64,000 bases of DNA from an uncultured Gemmatimonadales bacterium (GCA_963708135.1 OY970192.1:768001-832000), one strand, 5' to 3'. Shown: positions 40,250 through 59,605, counted from the stretch's first letter. Notes: generated by a model from the letters alone, not told the origin. Translations and numbers: made by a program.

Positions 40250-40501
40250 ATTCTTTTCGTTCGCCCTGCCGAGGCCCGACGCCCCGCCTACCTCCTGGTC
40301 CGAGTACGAGGCCCGCATGCTGCCGGCGCGGATCAATCGCAATAGCGCCACCAGCACCTTTTCTTTCGTAAAGGACCGTCCGCATTCGGCGACCCAGCCC
40401 ACTTCAGTGCCGCTGTTCAGCATTCAGAGGATGGATTCGAGATCCTCCACGTCATTCGCCAGCGCGCCCAAGACATACATATCAGGAATCGACTCTATCA
40501 T
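40250..40501 (-). pseudogene. decayed lower-GC ORF, possibly an old immunity gene
   Basis: MIESIPDMYVLGALANDVEDLESIL*MLNSGTEVGW...; internal TGA; composition like the toxin cassettes. Confidence 0.35.
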
Positions 40502-40534
40502 TGGTCTCTTCCAGGAGCTTTCGGACGGCAGCTG

Positions 40535-41107
40535 CGTGTCCGTCCGGCAGACGCCCGAACTCGCCCCAGTCCACCTGCGCGTGATACCCGGCGCCGTTTC
40601 TTAGCGCACCGTCAGCTCTTCCAGCCGGTGCCGCTCCGTGCGCAGCGGCCGCACGAACGCCTTGAGCTGGGTGATCTGCCCCGAGTAGCCCTCGGCGCGG
40701 ATCTCCCTCAGCAGCACCGTGACGGGCAGCTCCGGGAGCTTCTTCAGCCGCGCCTCCACATACGCCTTGTACGGATCGAGTAGCGTCCGTCGCGGCGGGC
40801 GCGGACCCTAGGCCGGCGGCTCCTCACCCCTCAGGTACCGCCGCACCGTATTCCGGCTGAGCCCCGTCTCGCGGCCGATCGCGCGGATCGAGCGCTCGCC
40901 ACGCACCATGCATTGAATGTCCAACCAGGCCTCCGTCGAGATCATCCCGGCCTCCGGCTGCGTCACCATCACGAGGGTCCGGGATCGGAAGGTAAGCGTT
41001 TCGAGTCGTGGTCTCCGCGGCTGCGCCGCTACGACCCGACTCACCCGCCGCAGGGTGGGTCAGTTTTCAACCGACGCGAGTGGGTCAACTTTCAACCGGC
41101 GATGACA
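40535..41107 (-). mobile_element. istA: IS21-family remnant: left end plus decayed istA 5' part (ATG at 40945)
   Basis: Terminus TGTCA at 41107 with tandem GGGTCA.TTTTCAACCG-like repeats. Translation SIRAIGRETGLSRNTVRRYL..LLDPYKAY..GYSG..ETAPG/AQVDWGEF has two stops and a frameshift. Confidence 0.85.
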
Positions 41108-41212
41108 ACGCCGAAGAAGAAGGTGCTGGTCGGCATCGCCCGCAAGGCGACGCGCATGATGTTCCGGGTCGCGGTCGAGCGGCGGCTGTACACGGCCGAG
41201 CCGCCGCGGTAG

Positions 41213-41710
41213 GATGACGTAGCAGACAGGCTGGGGCGGGGCGCCGCTGCGCGCTCCCGCTTCCGGCCCGTGCACCGGGTCCAGGCCGGGGCAGAGCGCG
41301 CGAAGATGGATCGAAGGGACCCGCGTGGTCCGCTTCCGAGTGTGGCATTCGCGTACCCCGGCCCTGAGCACGCTCAAGTCTCCCATGTGGGGGTGTTGAG
41401 GGCCCTGCGGGGCGCCTCCGAATACCGACGCGATCGAGCTACGCGTGCTCATGTGGCCGGGGTGCGATTTGACAACAGGAGTCATCCTTTCAGGCGAGAG
41501 GAGCACCGCGTGCTCGCCGGGATGGTGGCCGGGCGTGGATCCGAGGCAGCACGTGAGGGGAGCGATGTCTCCGCCTCCGTCGAGTCGGCTGATCGCGCCC
41601 GGTCCACTCCCGTTGCTGTGACGCGCGGCTGAGGGGCCGGTGCGGATCCGATAATCTGGTCGAGGCGCACCCCGTGCGGCCTCCAAGGTGGCACTCGATC
41701 GCACCGGCCC
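41213..41710 (+). ncRNA. putative bridge/seek RNA of IS110-A (donor-like loop plus 2 target-like loops)
   Basis: Conserved blocks AGTCTCC, ATCGAGCTACGCG, GTGCGATTTGACAAC; stem-loops at 41526-41606 and 41635-41710. Confidence 0.7.
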
Positions 41711-41717
41711 ATCTGGG

Positions 41718-41957
41718 TCACTCTGCCAGCAGTTGGACTTCGAGTATCTCGCCGACCCCCGCCGCGGCGGCCGCTGTTCGATCGACGGAGTCGGGGTCCA
41801 CTGAGCCCCAGTTCAGAACTTCAAGGACATCGTACACAACCTCGCGCCCCGGGGAGTGTGGGTCTACAGACAGAATCTTGGCGACGACCACCTGACCATC
41901 GGCAAACCGCATCCGGACCCTCTGGTTTGCCAGCGGGATGAGTTCGGTAGCCTTCAT
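41718..41957 (-). CDS. putative immunity protein
   Basis: Small ORF directly after the Rhs tip; AGGAG RBS; alternative start at 42008. Confidence 0.65.
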   Translation of the reverse strand: MKATELIPLANQRVRMRFADGQVVVAKILSVDPHSPGREVVYDVLEVLNWGSVDPDSVDRTAAAAAGVGEILEVQLLAE

Positions 41958-41992
41958 CCTTTGCTCCTGTAGAAGTCGCGAGTACCCGGAGA

Positions 41993-42505
41993 TCACTTCC
42001 ACATCCATCGTTGGATGAGGAGGTGGACATTCCCACCAGTCAGTCTATTCTCCAAATTTCCGACCAATTCGCCCGCGTTGAAATGGCCCGCCGGCTTGAT
42101 CTGCGGCGCACGATAGACTCGATCTCCCGCGACTCGACCGATCTCGGCGCCCGCTCCACGAGCGGCTCGAATTGCGCGCCCTCCAGCGGTCCATATGCGG
42201 CCTGCGATGGTAGCCTCTAATTCACTACCGAGCCGAACGGTGACGTTTTTGACCGCGCCTGCCGCCGTTTCCAGAGCGCGTCCAACGCGTCCAGCTGCTC
42301 TCGCGACAGGAGGCATAGGGAGCATCGCCGTCATGCAGGAAATCGACTCAGCACACGTTGCGAGCACGCCACCTGCGTAGTTCAGCGCAGCGTTGCCTTC
42401 TCCCGTGGCGAGACGGTGCGCGTACCACTCTGACGTGCCCGCTTCACAGTTGTTGAAGTCATCATCGGCAGGCGGACACGAACCGAAGGGATCCGTGTAA
42501 GACGC
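41993..42505 (-). pseudogene. orphan Rhs C-terminal toxin tip (possibly an RNase)
   Basis: Open frame beginning ASYTDPFGSCPP, no start codon of its own; ends RVYRAPQIK..NLE..NVHL. Confidence 0.8.
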
Positions 42506-42815
42506 ACCCCTCTACCGCGATTGCCCCGCCTTCCGGCCGACCCAGCAATTCAGCGATCTTATTCGTCTCAAACAGCGTCCCGTACCGTGACCCTGCAGGT
42601 GCAACCCTGAACCGTATCGCTGGGCTGCCGATCGGCTGAAGCCGGGTGGTCGATTCATCGACGTGCTCGGGATTCGCCTCCAGCCTGGCCGGCGTTACGG
42701 TCAACGGTTCGGCTCCGAGCTCCCCACGGCAGGCCTCGGCCGCCGTCTGACCGCGTTTTCTGTCATCGTCCGGTTCACGGTACGTCCCCGGCTCACCTCA
42801 ACCGGGAGACGCACC

Positions 42816-44048
42816 ATGAGCCACTACAAGAAGCGCCAGAGGGCCCAGCGAGCCGCCGCCGTGGTCGGGATCGACGCCGCAAAGCGCAGGCACGCGATGG
42901 TCGTGCGGCCGCGCGGCGGCGAGGACTCGACGCCGATGTTCTTCGAGGCGACGCGCGCCGGCTTCGGCAAGGCCCTGGAGGAGATCGAGGCCTGCGCCCC
43001 TGACGCCGAGCGGCACGAGATCCTGGTCGGCATCGAGTTCGCCGGGAACTACGGCTTCACGCTGGCGCACCACTTCGCGGCCGAGGGCCTCCAGGTCGTG
43101 AGCGTGCTCGGCTCGCACTCGAAGAAGTGGAAGGAGGTCGTCCACAACCAGAGCCTGAAGAGCGACCCGGCCGACGCCGTCACGATCACCGACCTGGCCA
43201 GCCAGGGGCACTTCGTGATCTTCCCCTTCCTCGAGCAGGTATTTGCAGACCTGCGCTACCTCGTGAGCCTGCGCGAGCGCCTGACGAAGCTCCGCACGGG
43301 CGCCATCACGCGCCTCAAGGACGTGCTCCAGGTCGTGTGGCCGGAGTTCGACCGCCGCTTCGGCAACTTCAACCACAAGACGCCGATCGCGCCCCTGGAC
43401 GCCTTCCCGGGGCCCGACGCGCTCCTGAAGGCGTCCAAGCGCCGCATCATGACCGTGCTCCGGAAGGCGAGCCGCGGCCACCTCGGCGAGAAGGCCTATC
43501 AGGAGCTCCGGCACATGGCGGAGCACACCGTCGCCCTTCCGGGGGCCCAGGGCGTGCTCAAGGACGAGATCGCCCTCCAGCTCGAGCTCCTCGCCACCTA
43601 CGAGCGGCAGATGGCCGAGGTCGAGCGGCTCATGGCGGAGTCTGTGTCGAGCGTGCCTGAGGGCGAGGCACTCCTTACGATCCCGAAGCTCGGGGCCGTC
43701 ACCGCGGCGACGTTCCTCGGCTCGATCGGCGATCCGCAGGTCTACGAGTCCAGCCGTCAGGCACTCCGCGTCGGCGGACTGTCGCTCGTCGTCCACGAGA
43801 GCGGCAACCGGCACGGGCGTCCGCGGCTCTCCAAGCGGGGCCGCCCCGAGCTCCGGCGCCAGATGTACATGTTCGCGCTCCGGAGCGTCTCCAACCGGTC
43901 CCTCTACCACGACTACTACCGCCGCATGCTGGAGCGGAACGGTGGCGAGAAGATCCCCGCGCTGGTCGCCGTGATGCGCAAGGCGGCGCGCCTCATGTTC
44001 AGCGTCGCGAAGGACCGGCGCGCCTTCACCATGGAACCACCGCGGTAG
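42816..44048 (+). CDS. IS110-family DEDD recombinase
   Basis: GIDAAK, GIE, KSDPADA (DEDD) and C-terminal HESG..LSKRG..LR. Confidence 0.93.
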   Translation: MSHYKKRQRAQRAAAVVGIDAAKRRHAMVVRPRGGEDSTPMFFEATRAGFGKALEEIEACAPDAERHEILVGIEFAGNYGFTLAHHFAAEGLQVVSVLGSHSKKWKEVVHNQSLKSDPADAVTITDLASQGHFVIFPFLEQVFADLRYLVSLRERLTKLRTGAITRLKDVLQVVWPEFDRRFGNFNHKTPIAPLDAFPGPDALLKASKRRIMTVLRKASRGHLGEKAYQELRHMAEHTVALPGAQGVLKDEIALQLELLATYERQMAEVERLMAESVSSVPEGEALLTIPKLGAVTAATFLGSIGDPQVYESSRQALRVGGLSLVVHESGNRHGRPRLSKRGRPELRRQMYMFALRSVSNRSLYHDYYRRMLERNGGEKIPALVAVMRKAARLMFSVAKDRRAFTMEPPR

Positions 44049-44602
44049 CTCGGGGGAATAAACGGTGTGAGAGGGTCGGCTGGCGCGGACGCGCGCCGGC
44101 CCTCTCCGACCCAAGTGCACCCGACGCACGCCGGGGAGTTGCGCCCGAGAATGGATCGAGGAGGCCGCCCTTCGAGCGGCGGCCGGCCTCCGAATGCGGC
44201 ACACGCGCACCCCGGCCGGGAAGGCGCCCCAGTCTCCGAGATAGGGGTGTCGAGGGCTCCCAGGAACGCTGGCAGAACCGCGTTCCCGAGCGCCTCCTAC
44301 TTTGACCGCGATCGAGCTACGCGTCTTCATGCGGCCGGGGTGCGATCTGACAACACGGTTGCGGTTTCGCCCGGCGGGAGCGGCTCGCCGGGCGCGGACA
44401 CTCGCCTGGACGCGGATCCCGAGCGGCACTCGAGGGGAGCACAGCCTCTGCCTCCGAACAGGCCCCAGATCGCGTCCCGGCACCCTCTCCCCCGCCCCTG
44501 TGCGAGCAGACGGGGAAGAGGTGCACGAGGGGCCGGTGCGGATCCGATAATCCGGTCGAGGCGTCATCCGACGGCCTCCGAAGAGGCACTCGATCGCACC
44601 GG
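44049..44602 (+). ncRNA. putative bridge/seek RNA of IS110-B (donor-like loop plus 2 target-like loops)
   Basis: Donor-like loop 44243-44309; stem-loops 44405-44480 and 44533-44602. Confidence 0.75.
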
Positions 44603-44604
44603 GC

Positions 44605-44892
44605 CTACTCCGAAATCCCAAAGCGTGCTCTCGCATCCTCGGGAGCCACATTGATGAGCAACGGCGGTCCTCCACCGGGTAATTCGCTGTGGGGATAAGT
44701 CAGTACCCAAAAGCGTCCGTCCTTGGCGCGATACATGACGCTCCACCCATCATCTGAGCGCGCCACTTCCGTGATTTCGTGCGTAGTGATGATACGCTCA
44801 ATTCGACGGCATTCGTCGTCAGGGACAAGGCGGCCGTCCTGATCAACCCAAGTTCCGGTGATGACCGTTTCGTCTGGCTGAATGAGAGTCAT
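44605..44892 (-). CDS. immunity protein, Imm27-like
   Basis: GWSVMY..DGRFWVLTYPHSELPGGGPP; overlaps the toxin stop (ATGA). Confidence 0.8.
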   Translation of the reverse strand: MTLIQPDETVITGTWVDQDGRLVPDDECRRIERIITTHEITEVARSDDGWSVMYRAKDGRFWVLTYPHSELPGGGPPLLINVAPEDARARFGISE

Positions 44893-45404
44893 GGGATCTT
44901 CCTTATCAGGGCCTCAAACGGAATCGTGCCGTTGGGGATTACGAATTCACGAGCACCACCTGAAGTAAGTCCACGCCCGACGAAGCCCGGTGTCTTTCGG
45001 CCGACGGGAGAAGCAATCGCCTCGATGGCCGAACTCGGGAATTCAATGATGTTGAAGCCGAAGGGGCTTTCTGGGATCCCCAACCGAGTGGCAATCTCCT
45101 TCGACCCCATCCCCGCTATATCCTCGGCGGCCGTGACAAACACATCTTCGGCGCCAGCTCGCCCCAACGTTGCTGGAACAATATTCCCGGGAACGACGCG
45201 AGCAAGGACACTTGGGACAGCATTGGCTACTTCCCGACCGAGCAAGCGCCTTCCGAAGTCCGCAATGCCGCCTGCAATTCCGCCCGCGAGAACAGCGATG
45301 GGATCGAAAAATCCGGCGCTTTCAAGGCCTGGTTCGCCGCCGGGACACCCCGTATGCCACTCAGTCTCTGGGGGACACAATCCGAAGGGATCTGTATATA
45401 CCGG
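44889..45404 (-). pseudogene. orphan Rhs toxin tip, Ntox10-like
   Basis: Begins PVYTDPFGLCPP; contains DVFVTAAEDI and PGFVGRGLTSGGAREFVIPN. Confidence 0.8.
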
Positions 45405-45574
45405 ACGCCTCTAACCCAATGCGCCCCGTTTCGGCCTCAGACACCTCCCGCCGGACTCTACCTCCAGCCGTCTCAATCAGCCGTCCTGACACCCCCCCGA
45501 ACACCGAAGCCCTTCAGCATACCACCTAAAGTTCCATCGCCTCAGGCGCCCTCAGCCGCCGTCGATCCGCCCGG

Positions 45575-47011
45575 GGAGGTATTTTCAGAAGTTGTGGATC
45601 GCGTGACTTGATGGGGTGAAAAAAGGCGGCGTATCCTTCCGCGTTGGTTCGTTCACCGAAACGCGAAGCCCCGCTGGCCGGCGGGGGGAAGGAGACGCCA
45701 CCCATGCTGAAGCTATTCATGGACGCCCCTGCGGAGCAAGCGGGGGGGCTGGAGTTCACGCTGGACGAGCTCGCGCGTGAGGGCGCGCGGCGGATGCTGG
45801 CGGTGGCGCTGGAGGCGGAGGTGGCCGCCTACGTGGAGCGCTACCGGGGCGAGCGGGACGAGGCGGGACACGCGCTCGTGGTGCGCAACGGGAAGGCGCG
45901 GCCGCGACGCGTGACGCTCGGGGCCGGGACGGTGGAGGTCGCCGCGCCGCGGGTGAATGACCGACGGGTGGTGGAGGGGACGCGCCAGCGCTTCACGAGC
46001 GAGATCCTGCCGCCGTACATGCGGCGCAGTCCCAAGGTGGCGGAGGTGCTGCCGGTGCTCTATTTGCGCGGGCTCTCGACCGGGGACTTTCAGGAGGCGC
46101 TGCGGGCGCTGCTCGGAGCGGAGGCCACAGCGGGGCTGTCGCCGAGCGTCATCAGCCGCCTGACTGGAGCTTGGGAGGAGGAGTACCGGGCCTGGCGGCG
46201 GCGCGATCTCTCGGACCGAGACTACGTCTACGTCTGGGTGGACGGGGTGCATTTCCGGATCCGGCTGGAAGAGGACCGCCTGTGTGCGCTCGTCGTGATC
46301 GGAGTGCGCCCGGACGGGACCAAGGAGCTCGTGGCCATCGAGGACGGCTACCGCGAATCGACGGAGAGCTGGGCGGCGCTCCTGCGCGATCTGACGAGGC
46401 GCGGCATGCGCCCTCCCGTCCTGGCCGTAGGGGATGGCGCGCTCGGCTTCTGGGCGGCCGCGCGCGACGTCTGGCCCGACACGCGGGAGCAGCGCTGCTG
46501 GGTGCACCGGCTGGCCAACGTGCTGGACAAGCTGCCCAAGCGGCTCCAGCCGAAAGCGAAAGCGCATCTGCGCGAGATCATGAACGCGGAGAGCCGCGCG
46601 GCGGCCCAGGAGGAGATTGAGCGCTTCCGCGAAGAGTACGGCGCCAAGTACCCCAAGGCGGTGGCGTCCCTCGTGCGCGACCAGGACCAGCTCCTGGCCT
46701 TCTTCGACTTCCCGGCCGAACACTGGAAGCATCTGCGCACCACCAATCCGGTGGAGAGCACCTTCGCGACCGTGCGGCTCCGGCAGCGGGTGACGAAGGG
46801 AGCGGGCTCGAGAACGCGCGGGCTGGTGTTCGCCTACAAGCTCCTGGACATGGCCAGCCAGCGGTGGCGGCGCCTCGACGGCGCCCACCTCCTCCCCCTC
46901 GTTCGGGCGGAGGTCCAGTTCACCGACGGCATCATGCAAGAGAGGGAGGATCAAGAAGGGCGGAGGAGCGCCGCCTGATCACCCCAATCCACAACATTTG
47001 ACAATAGCTCT
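45575..47011 (+). mobile_element. IS256-family element
   Basis: Imperfect terminal IRs (GAGGTATTTTCAGAAGTTGTGGAT / GAGCTATTGTCAAATGTTGTGGAT); 8-9 bp target duplication (T)CCGCCCGG. Confidence 0.92.
45704..46978 (+). CDS. IS256-family transposase
   Basis: LYLRGLSTGDF, YVWVDG, GDGALGFW, QRCWVH, RTTNPVES. Confidence 0.93.
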   Translation: MLKLFMDAPAEQAGGLEFTLDELAREGARRMLAVALEAEVAAYVERYRGERDEAGHALVVRNGKARPRRVTLGAGTVEVAAPRVNDRRVVEGTRQRFTSEILPPYMRRSPKVAEVLPVLYLRGLSTGDFQEALRALLGAEATAGLSPSVISRLTGAWEEEYRAWRRRDLSDRDYVYVWVDGVHFRIRLEEDRLCALVVIGVRPDGTKELVAIEDGYRESTESWAALLRDLTRRGMRPPVLAVGDGALGFWAAARDVWPDTREQRCWVHRLANVLDKLPKRLQPKAKAHLREIMNAESRAAAQEEIERFREEYGAKYPKAVASLVRDQDQLLAFFDFPAEHWKHLRTTNPVESTFATVRLRQRVTKGAGSRTRGLVFAYKLLDMASQRWRRLDGAHLLPLVRAEVQFTDGIMQEREDQEGRRSAA

Positions 47012-47162
47012 CCGCCCGGATTCCGTCACCACTCCGGCGGTGATACGCTTCCGGGTTCGGGCTCAAACCCGGCAGGCGCCGCTCACAACGCCATTCAGCC
47101 CGATTCCGCCATCGGTGCGGCCCACGGTACCGCTCTGGTCCACTTCAACCAGGAGCGAGACC

Positions 47163-48398
47163 ATGAGCCGTTTCGAGAAGCGCCGCCGGGCCCAGCGCGC
47201 CGCCGCCGTCGCCGGAGTGGACGCGGGCAAGAGGAAGCACGCGATCGCCGTCCGGCCGCGCGGCGGCGAGGACAGCACGCCGCTCGAGTTCCAGACGACG
47301 CGGGAGGGCTTCGAGATCGCCGTCCACGCGATCCTCGACAACGCGCCCGACGCGCGGCCGGAGGACGTGCTGGTCGGCATCGAGTTCGCCGGCAACTACG
47401 GCTTCACCTTCGCGCACTTCCTGCGCGACCGCGGCTTCCAGGTCGTGAACGTGCTCGGCGCGCACAGCAAGCGCTGGAAGGAGGTCGTCCACAACCAGGG
47501 GCTGAAGAGCGACGCGAAGGACGCGCTCACGATCACCGACATGGTGGCGCAGGGCGCCTTCGTCGGCTTCCCGTTCCTCGAGCAGGTCTACGCCGACCTG
47601 CGCTACCTGGTCAGCATGCGCGAGCGCCTGACGAAGCTCCGGAGCGCGACGATCGCGCGGCTGAAGGACGTGCTCCAGGTCGTCTGGCCGGAGTTCGAGC
47701 GGCGCTTCAGCAACTTTAGCAAGAAGACGCCGATCGCGATCCTGGAGGCGTTCCCCGGGCCGGATGCGTTCCTGCGCGCACCGAAGCGGCGCGTGCTGAA
47801 GGTGATCCGGGAGGCGAGCCGGGGTCATCTGGGCGCGGCCGCCTACGAGCACCTGCGGTGCGCGGCCGAGGACACCGTGGCGCTCCCCGGCGCGCAGGGC
47901 GTGCTTGCGCAGGAGGTCGGCCTCCAGCTCGATCTCTTGGCCTCCTACGAGCGCCAGATCGCCGAGGTCGACCGCCTCATGGCCGAGCGGCTCGTGGACG
48001 CGCCCGAGGCCGAGGCGCTCCTGTCCGTCCCGAAGCTCGGCGCCGTCACGGCCGCCGTGTTCCTGGGCTCGATCGGCGACCCGCGGGCCTACGACTCCAG
48101 CCGGCAGGCGCTCAAGGTCGGCGGCCTCGGGCTCGTCGTGAGCGAGAGCGGCGCCCAGCGCGGCCGGCCGCGGCTCCCCAAGCGCGGCCGGCCCGAGCTC
48201 CGGCGCCAGATGTACATGTTCGCGGTGCGGAGCGTGAGCCGGGGCGGCCTGTTCCGGGCGGAATACGAGCGGGCGCTCGAGCGCAATCCGAACACGCCGA
48301 AGAAGAAGGTGCTGGTCGCGCTCGCGCGGAAGGCGACGCGGCTCATGTTCGCGCTCGCGAAGGAGCGGCGGCTGTACACGATGGAACCGCCGCGGTAG
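47163..48398 (+). CDS. IS110-family DEDD recombinase
   Basis: GVDAGK, GIE, KSDAKDA, SESG; clear paralog of 42816-44048. Confidence 0.93.
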   Translation: MSRFEKRRRAQRAAAVAGVDAGKRKHAIAVRPRGGEDSTPLEFQTTREGFEIAVHAILDNAPDARPEDVLVGIEFAGNYGFTFAHFLRDRGFQVVNVLGAHSKRWKEVVHNQGLKSDAKDALTITDMVAQGAFVGFPFLEQVYADLRYLVSMRERLTKLRSATIARLKDVLQVVWPEFERRFSNFSKKTPIAILEAFPGPDAFLRAPKRRVLKVIREASRGHLGAAAYEHLRCAAEDTVALPGAQGVLAQEVGLQLDLLASYERQIAEVDRLMAERLVDAPEAEALLSVPKLGAVTAAVFLGSIGDPRAYDSSRQALKVGGLGLVVSESGAQRGRPRLPKRGRPELRRQMYMFAVRSVSRGGLFRAEYERALERNPNTPKKKVLVALARKATRLMFALAKERRLYTMEPPR

Positions 48399-49042
48399 GT
48401 TGGGGGAATCAACACCATGGGAGGGCCGGCTGGCGCGGTGCGCGCCGGCCCTCCTACAGTGCACCAGACGCAGGCCGGGGGATGGAGCAGAAGAATCCAT
48501 CGAAGGGGCCGTCTCGCACGAACGTGAGGCCTGCTTCCCAAGGTCGGACCCGCTCCCCCTGACCCAGAGTTCGCCACAGTCTCCGAGGAAGGCGTGTCGA
48601 GGGCCACGCGCGGCAGACGCCGCCACGGTGCCTCCGAGGACTTGAGGGTATCGAGCTACGCGATCTCGAGTGGTCTGGGTGCGATTTGACAACTCAGCGC
48701 TTGCCTTCGCCGTCGCGGCGTCGAGCCGGCCGCGACGGAACGGGTGGCGTGTGCCCGGCGCGGATCCGACATCCAGCCTGAGGCGGCCCAGCCGGCCTCC
48801 CATGATGGACCTGATCGCGTCGGGCACCGTCCTCCTCATGGGCATCGGCCCGGCATGGACCCGATAATCCGGATGAAGGGCGCTCTGCGGCCTCCCATGT
48901 GGGACTCGGTCGTGCCGGGCCCCGCCTCCCCGCCGGGCTGGCCGACGGGGAGGTGAGCCGAACCGGGGCCTGTGTGGATCGGGGGATCCGACAGAGGCGC
49001 GAACATCGCGGCCTCGGAAAGTGACACTTGATCGCATCGGCC
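48399..49042 (+). ncRNA. putative bridge/seek RNA of IS110-C (donor-like loop plus 3 target-like loops)
   Basis: Donor-like loop 48590-48648; stem-loops 48751-48827, 48847-48921 and 48967-49042. Confidence 0.75.
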
Positions 49043-49055
49043 TCTTCGCTGGTCG

Positions 49056-49457
49056 TCATCGGTACTCCTCCTCCAAGCGTTGCAGTAGGGCAGTAAACTC
49101 AGCTACAGCCTCCGGAATCCCCTCGCCCAAGTCCTCGTGGAAGTAGTCGCGGAAGAGTAGATCTGGCCAGATCCGCGTCTGCCCAGGCGCGGTGGTGTCG
49201 ACGCGCCAATATCGGGAAGCCCGGCCATCTACTATCTCGAACAGTGAGATCGGTGCCCAGGAGAGCTTCCCATGCTCATTGACGAGGTGCAGCCATGTCC
49301 CGGTGCCCAAGACGTTGGAGTCAACCGAGAATTGGACTCCAACTACCATGTAGGTCTTCCCCAATTCCAATGCGAACTCATGGGCATCAGCAGCTACTCG
49401 GCCCATCCGCATCCGCTGCTCGGCGGTCGGCGAAATGGAGACACACTTGGCTCGCAT
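49056..49457 (-). CDS. putative immunity protein
   Basis: Start overlaps the toxin stop (TAATG); lower GC. Confidence 0.72.
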   Translation of the reverse strand: MRAKCVSISPTAEQRMRMGRVAADAHEFALELGKTYMVVGVQFSVDSNVLGTGTWLHLVNEHGKLSWAPISLFEIVDGRASRYWRVDTTAPGQTRIWPDLLFRDYFHEDLGEGIPEAVAEFTALLQRLEEEYR

Positions 49458-50011
49458 TATCTGAATACCGTTTTGAATTCCACCCGCACACCGGTTACGA
49501 GGTTTTCGACCCAGTGTGTCTCGAACCGGACTCCGTCGTCTGCCCTAAATATGCTACTACTCTTCTTGACCCAGTCTCCTGCCTCGCCTCCGTACTGCTC
49601 AGCTATCCTGCCAGCATCCCGAAACACGGTTCCGGATCGACCACCGGCAAAGATGGTCCCTCGCTCCGCCATCTGCGCTTTGCTGGCGATCTGTTTCGCC
49701 AGGTTGAGGGCTTCGCCACTTCTGCCGACGCCGCCGATGAAGGCCCCGGGCGAGCCGCACAAAACACCTTCACCACAACCGCCCCCCATAAGGTCGTTGA
49801 AGGTCTGTTCTCCGGCTTCAAGAGCTGCGCCCACGTTCAGCGCCCAAGAACGGCCGGTTCGAGACCCCCAGTTGGCCAGTAATTGGTAACAGGATTCATC
49901 GGAACCGGTGAAGGGACACAGCCCGAACGGATCGGTATAGGAGGCCGGATTATCCCCGTTGTAGCTGTAGAGGTTGAGCCCGCCCGCAAGTCCAATGGGG
50001 TCTTCCTGCGT
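49457..50011 (-). pseudogene. orphan Rhs toxin tip with short core remnant
   Basis: TQEDPIGLAGGLNLYSYNGDNPASYTDPFGL followed by a variable tip (YGG..DWVKK..ETHW..EFK). Confidence 0.82.
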
Positions 50012-50139
50012 TAATATCCGCTCAGACGCCTCCGGCCGACTCCCGAGCCGCTATCCCTCTGTCGTTTCTTTCTTTAGCCGCTTCCTTCCCGCCTTCTTCG
50101 TCGTAGTTTTCCGCTTCAGACCTGGATGCGTGTTTTCCC

Positions 50140-50361
50140 CTACGCAAAGAGGAGGCGTCCCTTCGGCGGTGGTACCTCACGACCGATGTCGCGCGCCGTC
50201 TCGATCCACTCCTCGATCACCGTCTGCACGTTGCCCAGCGCCTCGCGATACGTGGCACCGTCGGCGGCACAGCCCGGCAGCTCGGGCACCTCGGCGATGT
50301 AGGCATCGTCCTCCTCGCTCCAGTAGAGGATGATCTCGTAGCGTGGGTCAGTCTTCGCCAT
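50140..50361 (-). CDS. hicB: HicB-family antitoxin
   Basis: YWSEEDDAYIAEVPELPGCAADG.T..EAL. Confidence 0.88.
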   Translation of the reverse strand: MAKTDPRYEIILYWSEEDDAYIAEVPELPGCAADGATYREALGNVQTVIEEWIETARDIGREVPPPKGRLLFA

Positions 50362-50614
50362 CGGCCGTGCCTCCAAGCTTGTACGTCACGATTACACGCC
50401 GGACCTGCTTCACCTGATACGGCTTCGCCAGCTTGCCCCTGGGCTGCAGGTTCAGGATCTCCGCGATGCCATCACGCAAGTAAATGTGATGGCTGCCGCG
50501 GATCCGCTCCTCGAAGCCGAGCGCATGGAGCAGACGCCGCAGATCCTGGAAATCGATGGCGCTGTCGGAGGTTCCCCGCAGCAGCCGCGCCAGGATCTTG
50601 TCGATCTGCGTCAT
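50348..50614 (-). CDS. hicA: HicA-family toxin
   Basis: LGF..RIRGSHHIY and AKPYQVKQV. Confidence 0.88.
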   Translation of the reverse strand: MTQIDKILARLLRGTSDSAIDFQDLRRLLHALGFEERIRGSHHIYLRDGIAEILNLQPRGKLAKPYQVKQVRRVIVTYKLGGTADGED

Positions 50615-50668
50615 GCCGAAAGATAGCGTGCCGGCTCCTCGCGCGGGACCACCAAGGTGCGGGGCAGG

Positions 50669-50756
50669 TTTACGTAACCCGGTTACGTAAAGGGCCAGAG
50701 GCCCCCAGCGCAGGCGCGGCGAGGCCGAGTGCGCATAATCCCGGGATTATGCGCAC
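50669..50756. repeat. two palindromes, Xer/dif-like
   Basis: TTTACGTAACC-C-GGTTACGTAAA (50669-50691) and GTGCGCATAATCCC-GGGATTATGCGCAC (50729-50756). Confidence 0.8.
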
Positions 50757-50884
50757 CGAGCGAAAGCGAGGGGACCCGGCCGGTCCCGAGCGAGAGCGAG
50801 GGCGGCGCGCCGGAGCGCAGCCTGCGCCGCACGCGCCACGCTGCCGGCCCTGCCACCACCACCCTAAATAGACAAGCAAAGCAG

Positions 50885-51847
50885 CTAAAGAGAGGAGGGG
50901 TGGGTGGGCCGTGTGAGATGGGCCGGGTGAGTGCGGGCGTGCACCTGCTTGAGGCGGGCGATGGAGACGCGGGTGTAGAGCTGGGTGGTGGAGAGCTGGG
51001 CATGACCGAGCATCTCCTGGATGTCGCGGATGTCGGCGCCGCCCTCGAGCATGAGGGTGGCCATGGTGTGGCGAAAGAGGTGGCAGGAGCCGCTCTTGCC
51101 GAGGTCAGCCGCGGCCACGTAGCGGCGCACCAGCTCAGAGAGACGATTGGCCCGGAGCCGCCGTCCGCGGCGGGAGAGAAAGAGGAGTCCGTGATCGGGC
51201 GGCACGAGCAGGTGCGGCCGCACATCCGAGAGGTAGCGCTGGGCCCAGGCGAGCGCCCGCTCCCCGACGGGCACCAGCCGGTCGCGTCGTCCCTTGCCCT
51301 CGCGCACGAAGAGACTGCCGCGGGCAGGATCAATGTCCACCAGGCGGAGCCGGATGAGTTCGGTGCGACGGATCCCGGTCGAGTAGAGCACCTCGAGGAG
51401 CGTGCGGTCCCGCACCCCGAGCAGGGTGAACAGATCCGGCTGCGCAAGCACCCGCTCCGCTTCGTCGCTGGTGAGCACGGCGCCGGGCAGGTGATGGGCT
51501 CGCCTGGGCAGCTCGAGGTCGGCCGCGGGGTTGTAGGGCAGGCGGTGGGTCCGCACGAGCCACTTCAACAGGCCCTTGATGGCGATGAGCTTCTGCGCCT
51601 GTGCGCCCCAGCCCAGCGGCTGTCCGTTCTTCTGCCGCTGCTGGAAGAGCGCCGTGCGATAGCGCTCGAGGAGCGGCAGCGAGAGATCCTGCACGGTCTC
51701 GACGCCGCGCTCCTCGCACCAGGTGCGGAAGTGGTTCAGGTAGCTTTTGCGGCTGCGCACCGTGTGCGGCGAGTAGGCCGCGGCCGCAAGCGCGGCCAGG
51801 TGCAGCGCGATGAGCGTGGCGAGTTCGCTCTCCGCGGCCGCACTCAT
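50885..51847 (-). CDS. XerC/XerD-type tyrosine recombinase
   Basis: YSTGIRRTE, GKG, HLFRH, LGHAQLSTTQLYT (R-K-H-R-H-Y intact). Confidence 0.93.
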   Translation of the reverse strand: MSAAAESELATLIALHLAALAAAAYSPHTVRSRKSYLNHFRTWCEERGVETVQDLSLPLLERYRTALFQQRQKNGQPLGWGAQAQKLIAIKGLLKWLVRTHRLPYNPAADLELPRRAHHLPGAVLTSDEAERVLAQPDLFTLLGVRDRTLLEVLYSTGIRRTELIRLRLVDIDPARGSLFVREGKGRRDRLVPVGERALAWAQRYLSDVRPHLLVPPDHGLLFLSRRGRRLRANRLSELVRRYVAAADLGKSGSCHLFRHTMATLMLEGGADIRDIQEMLGHAQLSTTQLYTRVSIARLKQVHARTHPAHLTRPTHPSSL

Positions 51848-54800: not shown

Positions 54801-54891
54801 GCCGCAGCTTCACTCCGCTCCCCTCCACCAGCCCCACCAGGTCCGCCTCGCGCTTGAGCCGCTCCAACTCCTCCCTCTGGATCCGGGCCAT
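51844..54891 (-). CDS. DnaG-like primase (CHC2 Zn finger + Toprim) fused to a P-loop domain
   Basis: CPFHEDHEPS..WHC..C, CEALLD, YDRD, SSAAGKT. Confidence 0.88.
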   Translation of the reverse strand: MARIQREELERLKREADLVGLVEGSGVKLRRHGADLLGLCPFHEDHEPSLVVSPAKGLWHCLGACQAGGSVIDWVMRREGVSFRHAVEILRGAPAASAKARALPPLLEPDVDDQALLQQVVGYYHETLKESPEAIAYLEKRGLAQVADIDRFQLGFANRTLGYHLPKKALKAGAEIRSRLQRLGILRPSGHEHFTGSLVVPVIDADEAVREMYGRKITEGLRAGTPLHLYLPGAHAGVWNEAALAESKEVILCEALLDALSFWCAGYRNVTASYGVSGFTAAHHEAFRRYGTERVLIAYDRDAAGESAAAALAEQLAADGIGCYRIQFPQGMDANAYALASTPAAESLGERIRHAVWLGGGRATPAAKSARPPDEPGADELSVGVSGTSHSTAKASTSSPLAASSPSVPSASPLPAAPTPPLPVEVGEHEVVLRAGERSYRVRGLEKNTSADALRINLLVRQGAALHVDTLDLYAAKQRTAYLKQAASELGAPEPALKTELGQVLLALETLQEERLRDALTPREQKPPELSEGEEAAALDLLRAPDLLEQVLGAFEAVGVVGEETNKLVGYLASVSRKLERPLAVIVQSSSAAGKTSLLDAVLGFVPEEERIEYSAMTGQSLFYMGGRDLRHKVLAVVEEEGAERASYALKLLQSEGTLSIASTGKDPHTGRLVTEEYRVEGPVAIMLTTTATDLDEELLNRALVLSVDEARAQTRRVHERQRARRTLEGLLARREGNALVRLHQNAQRLLRPLAVVNPYAPQLTFLDTCTRTRRDHEKYLTLMDAIALLHQYQREVKQAERGGERIDYIEVTREDIEVANRLAAAVLGRSLDELPPQTRRFLEALNEWAIEECSRETVEPETFRFTARSVREALATGATQTKIHLGRLVDLEYVLMHRVGPRYTYELLYRGQGMGGEAFLPGLIEVEALHEGGYDAKRSGLRVERSGSGRPPAGGRSGRGRGASSGTNSAPVSRIPSLAAKERLEKPSQGDERLESYVVATAPSGNGHHGPADA

Positions 54892-54928
54892 GGCTCCTGC
54901 CTCCTCCGGAAATCCCGTCAATGGACCC

Positions 54929-54978: not shown

Positions 54979-54994
54979 GAGAGGAGGCCTTATC

Positions 54995-55624: not shown

Positions 55625-56074
55625 TCATTCAGAGTTCAGCGGAGACTGACTGGCAACTTGCGTCGATTCCGAGAATTCCCATGCCTTAAAAGTAATCTCG
55701 ATCCACGAGTAGCCCTCGCGGCGAAATGACGCTTTGTAGCTGGGCCCGGTCAGCCGTGAACGAACCAAGGCTCCAGCATCTTCGACTCGAAGGCAAGCGA
55801 TTTCGCCGAAGCCCCAACCAAGTGATGCCTCCTTCTGCATCACTGAGTCAGAGAGTTCGTTGATAACGTGCAGTTCACTCACGCCGCAGAAGCGGATTGA
55901 CACAATACGCCGGTCAGCGTATTGGGTCCGAATCGTTCCATCCTCCTGCCACACGAAGTCAATGTCGATGCTGAGGGACGCGCCCCAGTTCAGCCACTGG
56001 ACGCCGACAACAACACACTCCTCGAAATCGCGGTACGCGTGAAGCTCTGCTCTCAATACAGGCAATCCGCTCAT
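55625..56074 (-). CDS. putative immunity protein
   Basis: ATGA overlap with the Rhs stop; lower GC. Confidence 0.72.
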   Translation of the reverse strand: MSGLPVLRAELHAYRDFEECVVVGVQWLNWGASLSIDIDFVWQEDGTIRTQYADRRIVSIRFCGVSELHVINELSDSVMQKEASLGWGFGEIACLRVEDAGALVRSRLTGPSYKASFRREGYSWIEITFKAWEFSESTQVASQSPLNSE

Positions 56075-59040
56075 CGATTCCAGATGTTAAGATGCGTGGT
56101 CGCGTTGGGACCAGGGTTACCCAGCGCGTCGAGATAGTTGCGAGCTGCATTCATGATGCGCAGTTGCCAACCATTTTCCCGCCGCATTAAGCGAACTTCT
56201 TCGCCCGTTCCATTCGTGAAAAGGTAGCCACTCTTATTCTCCGTCAGTCCCATCACAAACCCGTTCTCTTTCAGAATTGCGCGAATTCCAATGATCGACT
56301 CATCCGCAAGTCCGCCTCCCTCCGAGAACAGCGCGCGTAGCCCGGCGCTCGCTCCCCGTAGCCCCCGCCCGACGGCACCACCACCCACCGTGAATGCCGC
56401 CATTGCGAAGCCGCGTCCGGCGTGACCACTCCCGATATCGAAGCCAGCATCAAACGCTGCGGTGATCGGATTGACATCGTTGATCGCATTCAACCCAGCT
56501 GCGGCATTGAGCACCACGCCGCCCAGGCCACCGCCACGCTGCGCTCCCCAATTTGCCGCTTTCTGCAAGCAATCTTCAATCGGCGGGCACAATCCGAACG
56601 GGTCGGTATAAGACGCGGGGTTGTTGCCCGCATACGCATAGAGGTTAAGCCCGCCGGCAAATCCGATGGGGTCTTCCTGCGTGAACCTCCCCAATCTGGC
56701 GTCGTAGTAGCGGTTGCGGAAGAAGGCTCCGGTCTCCTGGTTCGAGTCGCCGTTGCGGGCGGGGGCGAAGCTGTAGCTTTCGCGGATGGCACCCGACTGC
56801 GAGCCCCAGGTACTCCACGCCGGGAGCTCGTTTCCGTTCGTGTCCGTGATGCAGTTCTCGCCCTGCGGGCCCTGGAAGCTGAACAGTCGTTCGCGATGCG
56901 TGATGAAATATGCGCGCTTGTCGTTCAGGCTGCCGAGGGGACACGCAGCGTTGCCGTACATCATCAGCGGGTCGTCGAGCCCCGGCCCGTCCACGAACTC
57001 GACCGTCGAGTGCTCGATCACGTTCTGACCATCGTAGAAGGTCTCCGCGCCGGAGTGGGCATAAGCGCCGCGGATCCGCCGGCCCAGGCCGTCGTAGCGG
57101 AAGAAGGCGGTATCGGGGTGAGTGCCGGAGAGCTGGCCGGCGGCGCTGTAGTAGCGGTGCCAGGTGTAGGCGGTCCCGGCGTAGGTGCCCTGCTCGAGCG
57201 TCTCGTTGCCGTTCGCGTCGTAGCTGAAGTCGACGCTCTCCGGACCGGAGACGCCGCTGTAGTAGCGGGTCCGGCGGGTCACCTCGTTCGAGAGGCCGTC
57301 GAGCTGGAAGAGCACGCTGTCGGCGCACAGGCTGCCGCGCACGCACAGGTACTCCTTCACGCGGTTGCCGGCCGCGTCGTGGACCAGGCTGTCCATGGAG
57401 GCGTAGGTGCCGTTCTTCATCTGGTCCGTGTAGCGGATCTTCCCCCGGTGGTCGTAGGCCCAGTGGCTGACCCACGTCCCTCCGTTCGTCTCCCGGCCCC
57501 GGTTCACGACCGAGTCCGGCCGGCCCGCGGCGTCGTAGGCGAAGGTAAGGTCCACGGGCGTGTAGCCCGTCGTCGCATTGACCGAGACGACGCGCGCGAG
57601 CTGCCCGTCCTTCGTGTAGCCGTAGCTCGTCTTCGTGCCGTTGGGCAGCGAGACCGTGTCGCGCCGGCCGAGCGCGTCGTAATGGAAGGAGATCACCTCG
57701 CCCGCCGGCGTCTGGATCTGGCTGACGAGCCCGCCCGGGCCGAAGGTCGAGGTGTAGGTGCCCTTCGGCGTGGTCCGCGTGTGCCGGCCCGCCCACTGGT
57801 AGGCCGACGTGTACGTCCGCGTCGTTCCCGACCACTTGTGGAGCTGGACGCTCGAGGCGAGGGTGCCCTCGCGGTTGAAGGTGCGCGTGACCTTCGAGCT
57901 GTCCTCGTCGAGCACGGTCGGGTTGCCGGCGGCGTCGTACTGGAGGTCGATCGTGGTGCCGCGCACGCCGAGGACACCGCCCTGGTAGGTGCTCGAGAGA
58001 ATCCGCTGCTTCGGGCGGTCGTCGCCGTCGTAGTGGATCGTGACGGTGCTGCCGTCGCGGTTCGTGCCCAGGGTGAGGTTCCCGGCGAGGTCGTAGGCGT
58101 CGAGCTGGGTGGCCCCCTTGGCGTCGACCATTGCCGTGTCCTCGCCCAGGGCGTTGTACTGCCAGATGCGGGCGAGCAGGCGGGGGTCTGACGCGCCAAT
58201 GCGGTTACCATCCGCATCGAACGTGAAGCGGCTGGGGCGTATGAGGCCGTGGTCGTACTGGTCGACCTCGGTCCGGTTGCCGAGAAGGTCGTGCACGAAG
58301 GTCGTGCTGTCACCGGCGGGGTCGCTCACGCGGCGCAACAGCCCGTAGGCGTCGTAGCCGTAGCTGGTGGTGTCGCCGCCGGGCGTGGTGCTCGAGAGCA
58401 GGTTGCCGGTGCCGGAATCGTCGTTGCCGAGCATCGTGGTGAGATCCTGCACGCCGGCGCCGTAGACCGGCACGGAGTGCTCGGTCGCGCTCGCCACCTG
58501 GCCGCGGCTGTTGTACGTGAAGCTGGTCTCGTGCCCGCGCGGGTCCACGACGTTGTCCAGCGTGCCGTCCGTGGCGTTGTAGGTGAAGGTGGTGGTGTCC
58601 CGGTGCGTCCCGTCGCGCGGCTCGATCAGCTTCCACGGCTTGTCAGGCGCCGCCGTCGAATACCGATAGGTCACCGAATCCGCGCCGGCGCTCGACGTGA
58701 GGTCCGCGGCGTAGGCGACCCGGCCGGAGCCGTCGTAGGCGGTCGTGGTGGTGCGGCCGTTCGGCCAGTCGACCTCCTTCGTGAGCAGGGGGAAGCTGGC
58801 GTCGTGCTTCAGGACGGTTGTATTGCCCACGGCGTCGACAACCGTGTCCGGCGCGCCGAAGCGGTCCAGGTAGAACTTCGTGATCTGCAGGGTGTCCGTG
58901 CGCGGCCCGTGCACCTCGAAGTCGGCGCTCGCGGCCGCGTAGCTGGCGTTGAGGCCGGTGGCGGCGGTGGCAAGGCCGCGGCTCGCGAGAGGAGTAAACG
59001 TCGTGACCGGCGTTCCGGCCGTGACCTGCGGCAGGGTGTC
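56071..59040 (-). pseudogene. rhs: 5'-truncated Rhs/YD-repeat protein with toxin tip
   Basis: Many YDxxGR repeats and the core motif RNRYYDARLGRFTQEDPIGFAGGLNLYAYAGNNPASYTDPFGL. The ORF-track extension to 59454 reads through ncRNA and immunity DNA. Confidence 0.88.
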
Positions 59041-59292
59041 GGCCTCCCACGATGGACCTGATCGCGTCGGGCACGCCCCTCCTTCGCACTCATGGCCATC
59101 GACCCGGCATGGACCCGATAATCCGGGCGAGGCGCGCTCTGCGGCCTCCCATGTGGGACTCGGTCGTGCCGGGGCCCCACCTCCCCGCCGGGATGACCGA
59201 CGGGGAGGTGAGCGGAACGGGGCCGGTGTGGATCCGATAATCCGGTCGAGGGGTCTATGACCGCCTCCAATCTCGGACTCGATCGCACCGGC
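59041..59292 (+). ncRNA. truncated target-loop array (half a loop plus two full loops)
   Basis: Stem-loops 59103-59173 and 59221-59292, both with ATAATCCG. Confidence 0.7.
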
Positions 59293-59293
59293 T

Positions 59294-59596: not shown

Positions 59597-59605
59597 CGGT
59601 CCTCC

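Follow-up and report, generated by a model that had tools for sequence, protein, structure and literature searches.

How polymorphic toxin genes obtain new tips is usually answered by homologous recombination with incoming DNA. A 64,000-nt stretch (the window) of the 5.45-Mb genome of a soil bacterium, an uncultured member of the Gemmatimonadales (GCA_963708135.1 OY970192.1:768001-832000), raises the question of whether mobile elements can deliver such tips. Sequence inspection had pointed to three nested units, A, B and C, at 41108-49953. Each combines an Rhs tip and an immunity gene with structured hairpin RNAs, an oppositely oriented IS110/IS1111-type recombinase gene and a 310-bp left end. 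Our analysis suggests, with a probability of roughly 80%, that these are IS1111-type (IS110-family) RNA-guided elements of ~2.9 to 3.1 kb that carry tip and immunity gene as cargo and insert at the Rhs core. The features concerned are the following (window positions).

41108..41212, plus strand: 3' remnant of the element A recombinase gene, homologous to the gene ends of B and C; remainder and left end deleted
41213..41713, plus: non-coding region of element A, containing two hairpin units at 41528-41603 (48.7 bits) and 41635-41709 (83.7 bits; guide ATAATCTGG), from covariance model and alignment
41718..42008, minus: immunity-gene candidate A, 96 aa, an ORF immediately after tip A, without Pfam match
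41993..42504, minus: Rhs tip A, coreless, starting 5 nt before the Y codon of YTDPFG
42505..42815, plus: the 311-bp left end of element B, with ...AGAGGGGTG (minus strand) as the outer terminus that touches tip A; the terminus motif is kept at other loci
42816..44048, plus: element B recombinase, 410 aa, DEDD_Tnp_IS110 and Transposase_20 (Pfam, alignment)
44049..44604, plus: element B non-coding region (model matches of 58.5 and 85.6 bits; structure covariation)
44405-44480, plus: element B hairpin unit 1, with the other guide
44531-44604, plus: element B hairpin unit 2, 5' loop CGATAATCCGG, 3' loop ..AAGAGGCAC
44605..44892, minus: immunity gene B, Imm27 (Pfam, 7.9e-18)
44889..45403, minus: Rhs tip B, Ntox10, coreless (Pfam, 3e-45; junction)
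45404..45574, plus: outer part of the element C left end, aligning collinearly with the left end of H, which is uninterrupted
45575..47014, plus: IS256/Mutator-family insertion sequence inside the C left end (Transposase_mut, 1.2e-64), with two more genome copies at 99.7-99.9% identity
47015..48398, plus: inner left end and recombinase gene of element C (47163-48398, 411 aa; Pfam, conserved start)
48399..49042, plus: element C non-coding region with three hairpin units (model matches of 79.7, 78.2 and 57.2 bits)
48753-48825, 48848-48920 (guide GATAATCCGG) and 48967-49042 (guide GGGGGATCCG), plus: the element C hairpin units
49056..49457, minus: immunity-gene candidate C, 133 aa, without Pfam match
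49457..49944, minus: Rhs tip C
49945..50014, minus: Rhs core remnant ..QEDPIGLAGGLNLYSYNGDNP, behind a stop codon; it forms the target half-site, with GATAATCCGG at its end
56071..59040, minus: Rhs body truncated at its 5' end, carrying a core and tip (E) of its own (RHS_repeat, 2.9e-22)
59040..59293, plus: element D non-coding remnant, with full hairpin units at 59102-59174 and 59221-59293 and a truncated third
59294-59596, minus: immunity gene D, DUF6966
59606-60126, minus: Rhs tip D, on a second core remnant (60127-60196)

Every item listed for the three units in the initial annotation is present in the sequence. Its statement that the junctions at 49945, 45404 and 42505 share one codon position was likewise borne out, as each lies 5 nt upstream of the Y codon (YTDPFG codons start at 42499 in A, 45398 in B and 49939 in C, minus strand). 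It had missed the IS256 split of the C left end, the ~70-nt Rhs core remnants on which C and D rest instead of a full Rhs gene, and the extension of the array past the window to ~77000. There, a full-length Rhs bears a fourth unit in frame, its ORF (up to 1732 aa) running into tip H. The YD-repeat body, core motif, variable tips and adjacent immunity genes, together with this full-length ORF, are those of Rhs polymorphic toxins. Only H is intact and flanked by a usable target in this genome; C is split, and A, D and G are truncated. The D remnant joins the 5'-truncated Rhs body at 59040, and the core of that body (AACAACCCCGCG) is matched by none of the array's guides. All six copies or remnants of the array's recombinase family in the genome adjoin Rhs tips.

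The plus-strand ORFs of B and C matched PF01548 and PF02371 above the curated cut-offs (5.6e-20 and 3.6e-19 for B, 2.8e-23 and 1.8e-16 for C), that is, they have the N-terminal DEDD/RuvC-like and C-terminal Tnp domains of the IS110 family and IS1111 group. Their conserved starts at 42816 and 47163 give a left end of 311 bp. From the stop codon to the end of the last hairpin, 556 to 644 bp are non-coding (44049-44604 and 48399-49042), in keeping with the long non-coding region 3' of the recombinase gene described for IS1111-type elements (PMC11187229). Local alignment against shuffles in 12 elements found no clear subterminal inverted repeats (~7 to 17 bp, as in IS1111). The two ends share only a short CCTAT..GAT pattern, and their local alignment scores stayed within ~2.5 SD of the shuffle mean throughout the 12 elements, six of which scored no higher than that mean. 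The units differ from the classical minimal element, which has no passenger genes, in that the boundaries set by the guides enclose a tip and an immunity gene. At 2.9 kb, they resemble the IS110-family elements of more than 2 kb with cargo between guide-matched flanks that are defined in a 2026 preprint (bioRxiv 10.64898/2026.08.14.744561).

In the structure alignment, each hairpin consists of a stem, an internal loop and a stem-loop. Across 45 units, 96.3% of cells were paired and 14 of 20 pairs showed compensatory change, a level matched in none of 500 shuffles; slid controls paired at 36 to 46%. As judged from this alignment, the hairpins form a covarying structured RNA. All 14 covariance-model matches genome-wide fell inside the array, on the recombinase strand. 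The motif ATAATCCG occurs at 44547, 48864, 59118 and 59237 (plus strand) and at 49946 and 60128 (minus strand), and ATAATCCGG has 14 occurrences in the genome, counting both strands, of which five fall in hairpins and three at Rhs junctions. The initial annotation had recognized the guide motif as the Rhs coding strand left of the junction, and we found it at all listed positions, with ATAATCTGG in A. It had also expected a bridge or seek RNA with target and donor loops; the hairpins are target loops of the seekRNA type, and no separate donor-binding loop was found.

In the Rhs-directed unit, the 5' loop strand carries the Rhs coding-strand bases that encode ..(D/N)NP, reaching to the junction, and the 3' loop strand is the complement of the first 5 to 6 bases of the resident tip plus the initial three left-end bases. 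Comparison with other genomes, mostly represented by metagenome bins or contigs, indicates that guide and Rhs-core target covary. Guides match the Rhs core flush at the junction as ATAATCCGG in this genome (L003), TGGCGACCCGGT at L007 (12 nt), GGCGACCCGGT at L008, ACAACCCGGC at L010 and GGGGATCCG(G) at L004 and L046. Exact flush matches of at least 8 nt were present at 10 of 41 left junctions, including 9 of the 20 with an Rhs-core flank, while shuffled flanks averaged 0.08 such matches and never gave more than 1. The remaining 11 Rhs-core-flanked elements, with flush matches of less than 8 nt, count against insertion of guided elements at the core. The 3' loop equals the junction of left end and displaced tip over 9 exact nt in ACGTGACAC (L009, L011, L041 and L043) and ACGCGACAC (L012). 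Junction-spanning 3' loop matches of at least 7 nt occurred at 8 of 20 junctions (shuffled mean, 0.27), and the final three loop bases track the first three of the left end, GAC or CAC. This spelling of the junction is analogous to the handshake guides of IS621 (PMC11208158). Judged by sequence, segments of the predicted RNA are complementary to both target strands around the insertion point, as in the IS1111 group.

Rhs and CdiA orphan toxin/immunity arrays, in which older displaced tips lie downstream, are attributed to homologous recombination. They share with the array described here the order of Rhs core motif, variable tip and immunity gene. By the textbook model of orphan arrays, in which tips are exchanged through the conserved core, classical tip displacement would have built the array and the IS110-type elements would be passengers near immunity genes. 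The ~70-nt core remnants beneath C and D agree with such an origin. They are the only remnants of this kind, whereas orphan tips should retain upstream core-coding homology. Tips A, B and G start 5 nt before the Y codon, directly behind the element terminus; like most displaced tips elsewhere, they lack the core and begin at one fixed nucleotide beside a conserved terminus. Each displaced tip is separated from the next by a recombinase module. Moreover, a duplicated unit in another genome (G152, below) has only ~25 nt of downstream homology, and covariation of guide and junction is left unexplained. We regard this origin as the least probable of those considered.

If the elements carry cargo, tip and immunity gene should move with the recombinase. 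In genome G152, one ~2.9-kb unit occurs in two different Rhs genes as a block of 2997 bp at 98.6% identity that takes in tip and immunity gene. Homology stops ~25 nt into the different displaced tips and fades within 100 to 140 nt of Rhs core. Against the cargo-carrying reading, only 7 of 9 guide positions of this duplicated element match its present cores. Three further cargo-bearing elements lie at non-Rhs sites where both flanks match the two strands of one hairpin (8 and 6 nt at L014, 9 and 10 nt at L049, 8 and 9 nt at L044), and at all three the guide-matching left flank touches the tip start. A search for an empty site of L049 found none. Of 47 related loci, 42 show the architecture; by survey, a tip-start motif lies on the strand opposite the recombinase in 16/18, 12/12 and 14/17 loci.

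A different picture emerges from the recombinase modules (left end, gene and hairpins). Closely related modules bear cargo that is unrelated, and their homology breaks off abruptly at the last hairpin. Identity reaches 94% between C and H, 91-93% among L006, L007 and L008, and 91% over 2164 bp between B and a metagenome contig; the immunity stop codon lies 0 to 15 nt from the last hairpin. These observations fit a module that is mobile alone and lands between tip/immunity cassettes already present in an orphan array built by the host, so that tips are never carried. For such a module, the 5' guide would be expected to match hairpin-adjacent DNA, but it matches the Rhs core ~1 kb away, past tip and immunity gene, and an Rhs core directly touching the hairpins was found in no locus of the three surveys (18, 12 and 17 loci). 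The meeting of guide-matched flank and tip start at the non-Rhs sites and the inclusion of the cargo in the G152 block also argue against it, and we consider it very unlikely. Nevertheless, cargo and recombinase module are combined in a modular way, and the chief reservation is that the simple model leaves cargo exchange unaccounted for.

The recombinase might instead serve the host mainly as a switch: by taking units out and putting them back at one locus, it would alter which stored tip is expressed, with little horizontal movement. The rebuilt target and donor-like junctions of left end and tip would permit reversible excision, arrays of 2 to 5 units are common, and some units hold three hairpins with different guides. 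Yet occurrence is patchy (found in 1 of 40 relatives and, apart from the source genome, in 9 of 400 genomes of the phylum), recombinase modules are more alike between genomes than the adjacent Rhs genes, and copies are present outside Rhs loci. A switch of this kind is compatible with guided, cargo-carrying elements and does not exclude them; as a sole explanation it is also very unlikely, ranking behind the module that moves alone.

The initial inference of cargo-carrying IS110s that fuse a new tip and immunity gene to a resident Rhs is therefore largely supported, by guide-target covariation, the G152 copies, the non-Rhs flanks and the fusion to tip H. In the assembled contigs of one run, no circular junction, excision allele or empty site came to light, which counts against it. 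The mobile unit would extend from the first bases of the Rhs tip through the immunity gene, hairpin guides and opposite-strand recombinase to the 310-bp left end. The guided recombinase would join a circular form (left end plus tip start) to the Rhs core at a point 5 nt ahead of the YxDPxG tyrosine (Y) codon, fusing the incoming tip in frame and bringing its immunity gene. The old tip would be shifted downstream without its core. Since the new tip opens with the same conserved codons, the target would be restored and later insertions could stack, in the order C, B, A in the window and H, then G, further on. By homing to a conserved Rhs codon stretch, the elements would supply a new warhead with each insertion and move the old one downstream, and excision would bring the previous tip back into play. 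The first hairpin, beside the recombinase gene, probably specifies a second, non-Rhs target, where an element may sit unexpressed.

If this is correct, the elements are a dedicated agent supplying new tips to polymorphic toxin genes. We know of no other dedicated mobile agent for tip exchange, and full-text literature searches found no description of one for tip acquisition. To our knowledge, there is also no earlier natural case of an RNA-guided recombinase aimed at a coding motif to build an in-frame protein fusion. The element end would double as coding sequence, and separate guide hairpins for expression and parking sites would add a new layer of logic to IS110-type systems. The listed guide/target pairs make the idea directly testable in a laboratory host.

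We give even odds to a broader proposal, that across the Gemmatimonadota these elements constitute a multi-guide system of toxin-warhead exchange in which recombinase and cargo are themselves exchanged separately. Each element would carry one tip/immunity module, with the first codons of the module serving as the element's recombination end. One guide would address the Rhs core as expression site, another a neutral parking site and sometimes a third a variant core. Insertion would arm the Rhs with a new toxin and excision would restore the previous one, so that stacked arrays would act as a reversible magazine.

Among known systems, the IS1111 seekRNA elements (ISEc11, ISPa11, ISKpn4 and ISPst6; Siddiquee et al. 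2024, PMC11187229) are described with the same DEDD recombinase and downstream non-coding region, a 70- to 100-nt RNA unit with two short segments complementary to opposite strands at the insertion point, and a specific, naturally reprogrammable target choice. In contrast to that description, the right end here is a protein-coding toxin tip with its immunity gene, the target is a codon stretch within a gene so that insertion yields an in-frame fusion, two to three tandem guide units have different targets, and the search for subterminal inverted repeats yielded no clear ones. The bridge RNA of IS621/IS110 (Durrant et al. 2024, PMC11208160; Hiraizumi et al. 2024, PMC11208158) likewise has internal-loop guides, whose 5' strand is reported to pair with one DNA strand (at least 8 to 9 nt) and whose 3' strand pairs with the other, with extra bases matching the partner DNA after strand exchange. 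As reported there, its position is upstream of the gene, and target and donor are each recognized by a loop of their own; in the present elements we identified no donor loop, and the 3' loop strand itself holds three left-end bases.

The cargo-carrying IS110 elements of Hu et al. (bioRxiv 10.64898/2026.08.14.744561) are similarly reported to exceed the minimal 1.5 kb, to carry passenger genes and to insert repeatedly into occupied loci, forming tandem arrays. Their cargo is given as mostly plasmid-derived, with resistance genes most enriched, and the words toxin, in-frame and IS1111 are absent from the main text of that preprint. By comparison, the cargo of the units described here is a single dedicated module, and its first codons both make up the end of the element and complete a host gene. 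IS1111 elements that target attC are cited in PMC11208160.

Integrons also build arrays of promoterless, hairpin-ended cassettes behind a fixed expression point by site-specific recombination. Here, by contrast, the recombinase goes with every cassette, recognition would be RNA guided and the cassette becomes part of a resident protein's reading frame.

The contig holding the window (at 768001-832000) is a single sequence of 5.45 Mb with a G+C content of ~68%. Reading of window positions 41108-49953 delimited units C, B and A, in agreement with the three nested minus-strand units proposed in the initial annotation. Their features are listed below (window coordinates; minus-strand reading, recombinases on the plus strand).

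Features of units C, B and A
Unit C, 49944-49457, minus strand: tip
Unit C, 49457-49056, minus strand: immunity gene
Unit C, 49042-48399, plus strand: non-coding region
Unit C, 48398-47163, plus strand: recombinase
Unit C, 47162-45404: left end, with an IS256-family element inside at 45575-47014
Unit B, 45403-44889, minus strand: tip
Unit B, 44892-44605, minus strand: immunity gene
Unit B, 44604-44049, plus strand: non-coding region
Unit B, 44048-42816, plus strand: recombinase
Unit B, 42815-42505: left end
Unit A, 42504-41993, minus strand: tip
Unit A, 42008-41718, minus strand: immunity gene
Unit A, 41713-41213, plus strand: non-coding region
Unit A, 41212 down to 41108, plus strand: recombinase remnant; left end lost

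Both complete recombinase ORFs (B and C) carried DEDD_Tnp_IS110 and Transposase_20 domains. As tip B contains an Ntox10 domain and its neighbor is an Imm27 protein, the tips and their partners are real toxin and immunity modules; the Pfam search assigned the remaining tips and partners no family or DUFs only. All three tips start at a fixed point 5 nt upstream of the YTDPFG tyrosine codon (the junction). The upstream side of C retained only a 70-nt remnant of the Rhs core, the conserved codons just left of the junction, with a stop codon before it, while B and A directly followed the left end of the neighboring unit, which closes with a conserved terminus (..TTAGAGGCGTC or ..TAGAGGGGTG). The insertion sequence within the left end of C belongs to the IS256/Mutator family, and its two further genome copies are 99.7 to 99.9% identical, so it was probably active recently.

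The non-coding regions contain hairpins in which a 13-bp outer stem opens into an internal loop (~13 nt per strand) and then continues as a 7-bp inner stem-loop. In a structure alignment of 17 hairpin units from this genome and others, compensatory changes were found in 13 of the 20 pairs. When 45 units from 19 sources were considered, 96.3% of cells paired and 14/20 pairs changed on both sides, a level reached by none of 500 shuffles; slid controls paired at 36 to 46%. The covariance model detected two hairpins each in A, B, D and G and three each in C and H. Its 14 genome matches all lay within the Rhs array and on the recombinase strand (only 150 of 13358 first-look candidates scored), and the reading as a genome-wide REP-like repeat was rejected on this basis. 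No Rfam match was obtained in window 40500-60500 at E values up to 1. Unit length and position downstream of the gene agree with those described for IS1111-type seekRNA (PMC11187229). Judged by sequence and predicted fold, the hairpins are structured RNAs of the seekRNA or bridge-RNA type. The predicted transcripts measure ~75 to 90 nt and would span 44405-44480 and 44531-44604 in B and the three hairpin units in C and H.

The 5' strand of the internal loop was identical to the Rhs coding strand directly left of the junction, as originally noted for the guide motif, and both changed together across loci. This Rhs-directed guide sits in the hairpin nearest the immunity gene, or, in C and H, in the middle hairpin.

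Guide sequences identical to the Rhs core, in this genome and in comparison loci with related recombinases
This genome and L003: (G)ATAATCCGG
L007: TGGCGACCCGGT
L008: GGCGACCCGGT
L010: ACAACCCGGC
L004 and L046: GGGGATCCG(G)
L050: GGGGGGACCC

Exact flush matches of at least 8 nt occurred at 10 of the 41 left junctions with hairpins (9 of the 20 core-flanked junctions, plus the non-Rhs site L014), whereas 200 trials with shuffled flanks averaged 0.08 such matches and peaked at 1. The other 11 core-flanked junctions had fewer matching bases (<8 nt flush). The 21 junctions lacking a core lie mostly behind the left end of another tandem element, where no guide match is expected. The motif ATAATCCGG is rare, with 14 occurrences in the genome, 8 of them within this system.

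The 3' loop strand corresponded to the plus strand over the other junction, that is, the complement of the first 5 to 6 bases of the displaced tip and, after it, the three bases with which the left end starts. The loops ACGTGACAC (L009 and L011) and ACGCGACAC (L012) matched their own junctions exactly over 9 nt, as did ACGTGACAC in L041 and L043 over 9 nt; in B, the loop reads AAGAGGCAC versus AAGACGCAC at the junction. Junction-spanning exact matches of at least 7 nt were present at 8 of 20 junctions (shuffles: mean, 0.27; maximum, 3), and the final three loop bases followed the left-end start, GAC with GAC and CAC with CAC. Handshake guides have been described in IS621 as bases that pair with the partner DNA only after strand exchange (PMC11208158), and the 5' and 3' loop strands generally pair with opposite DNA strands (PMC11208160). 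Subterminal inverted repeats of the IS1111 type were not found above the level of shuffles. The extra hairpins of C (unit 3, window 48967-49042) and H (unit 2, positions 8103-8175 of L001, a locus of this genome) carry the guides GGGGGATCCG and GAGAACCCGG, which fit Rhs core variants of other genomes and no core in this one. Among candidate targets listed in this genome for the guides in the first hairpin of C/H, the first hairpin of G and the third hairpin of C, sites differed from the predicted target by ~3 mismatches, the maximum of the search.

Three tip-bearing elements were located at sites other than Rhs genes, and both of their flanks matched the two strands of the recombinase-adjacent hairpin.

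Flanks of elements at non-Rhs sites
L014: left flank GCTGTGAG; right flank AAA + CAC
L049: left flank AACAAGCAC; right side CACCA + GACCC, 10 nt exact
L044: left flank CCATGCGC; right side CCTAACCA + G

These matches identify this hairpin as a second target guide, and the element that it defines again begins at the tip. A donor-binding loop, as initially anticipated, did not emerge: the 5' strand of the first hairpin had no match to the left-end terminus in any inspected locus and matched the non-Rhs flanks instead, which rules out this hairpin for that role. In the left flank of L049, a segment of ~55 nt (bases 126-181 of query L049:5753-6500, minus strand) is a clustered repeat found many times in relatives; one genome alone has 18 matches, and 16 of these fall within ~12 kb. 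An empty site for L049 was not found; one relative keeps part of the left flank, with homology stopping 63 nt short of the junction.

That the tip moves with the recombinase is indicated by three lines of evidence, which support the cargo role first ascribed to the tip and immunity gene. The half-site read by the 5' loop strand is the Rhs core, and the tip and immunity gene separate this core from the hairpins; in none of the surveyed loci (genome collection, phylum sample and metagenomes) did a core adjoin the hairpins directly. In comparison genome G152, two Rhs genes separated by 26 kb share a 2,997-bp block with 98.6% identity, comprising tip, immunity gene, two hairpins, recombinase and left end. 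On the downstream side, all similarity between these copies is lost ~25 nt into different displaced tips, and upstream, identity drops to paralogue level within 100 to 140 nt of the core; a third copy belongs to a 12.7-kb duplication. The three non-Rhs elements, with their guide-defined start at the tip, provide the third line.

All three lines speak against the rival explanation that only the recombinase module moves and the tip/immunity cargo stays behind, which we consider quite improbable. Its best argument is the sharp cargo edge at the last hairpin, beside similar modules with unrelated cargo. Among the elements compared, recombinase modules were far more similar than cargo: C and H share 94% identity over the stretch between the left end and the second hairpin and have unrelated tips, L006, L007 and L008 are 91 to 93% identical with homology stopping just past the last hairpin, and a metagenome contig matched B at 91% identity confined to window 42477-44612. 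The last hairpin lies 0 to 15 nt from the immunity stop codon. Ordinary recombination in common flanks could shuffle existing cargo between elements, but the first attachment of a new tip at the exact last-hairpin edge is unexplained by the model of tip-carrying elements.

The survey of homologous recombinases for adjacent Rhs tips, suggested at the outset, recovered the architecture in 16 of 18 genome-collection loci, in all 12 of the loci added by a phylum sample of 401 genomes and in 14 of 17 metagenome contigs, the three misses being contigs of <2.8 kb. Records with related elements were mostly Gemmatimonadota bins, and much of the comparison set was metagenome assembled. Recombinases only 35 to 37% identical to that of B also adjoin starts of Rhs tips without an upstream core (L044, L048, L051, L052 and L053), and the association seems to predate the present family. 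L053 contains three tandem repeats of the tip-recombinase arrangement.

Sequence comparison alone demonstrates where the elements begin and end, that guides match on both sides, that the full-length Rhs gene is fused in frame and that units stack at one nucleotide position. By analogy with the families involved, the left end would be joined to the tip start in a circular intermediate, and this circle would undergo RNA-guided recombination with the core site. As all tips begin with the same codons, the target would be rebuilt after each insertion, so that units pile up and each left-end/tip junction resembles a donor; excision may be reversible, restoring the older tip. Among public runs, one DNA run and no RNA run was listed as containing the sequence. 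No circle joint or excision allele was seen in this DNA run, which consists of assembled contigs that bridge junctions 45404 and 49945 and may be the sample of the genome's origin. The recombinase was present in 1 of 40 relatives, and close relatives for an empty-site comparison were lacking.

RNA-guided IS110/IS1111 elements (PMC11187229, PMC11208160, PMC11208158; 2024) and cargo-bearing IS110 loci (2026 preprint, bioRxiv 10.64898/2026.08.14.744561) are already known. Full-text literature searches, supplements aside, returned no element with a coding sequence as its end, no conserved protein motif as an element target and no toxin tip with immunity gene as payload, and these are the features for which we found no description in print.

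Self-comparison and tblastn extended the Rhs array to approximately genome position 846000. There, tip H (start at 841160) is read in frame from a full-length Rhs ORF spanning 840670-845868 (up to 1,732 amino acids). The remainder of unit H consists of an immunity gene, three hairpins, a recombinase that is intact and a left end with its terminus at 838125; no other element in this genome is both intact and next to a usable target. Beyond unit H, tip G lacks a core and is accompanied by an immunity gene and hairpins of its own and by the remnant of a recombinase. Two ~8.1-kb blocks, 98% identical and 10,182 bp apart, come after G and separate G, D and C; each contains the 3' part of an Rhs body, tip E or F, an immunity gene, an integrase-primase element, HicAB and a core remnant. 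The 4.9-kb integrase-primase element (window 50664-55585; second copy from 60846 to beyond 64000) is edged by 77-bp inverted repeats (79% identical) and encodes a 320-amino-acid tyrosine integrase and a 1,025-amino-acid primase (CHC2 zinc finger and Toprim, with a weak helicase C-terminal-like match). The HicA/HicB toxin-antitoxin pair (window 50143-50614) has this element on one side and the Rhs core remnant on the other, and all three are duplicated together.

A second locus at 2.78 to 2.80 Mb holds three more Rhs genes or fragments. Genome-wide, this recombinase family is represented by six copies or remnants, each of them beside Rhs tips. L002 (genome 2791445-2795634) comprises a distantly related Rhs (26% identity; core variant GNDPVD|ARDPFG) and, behind it, a degenerate copy of the element: a tip, a small ORF and a non-coding stretch lead to a recombinase gene of the same family that carries an internal deletion. 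Within the array, two 5'-truncated Rhs bodies are joined, one to a cut hairpin unit at window 59040 with GGCCGA microhomology only and the other to a cut recombinase gene at genome 836199-836208 with GAG microhomology only; we read both breakpoints as resembling deletion scars.
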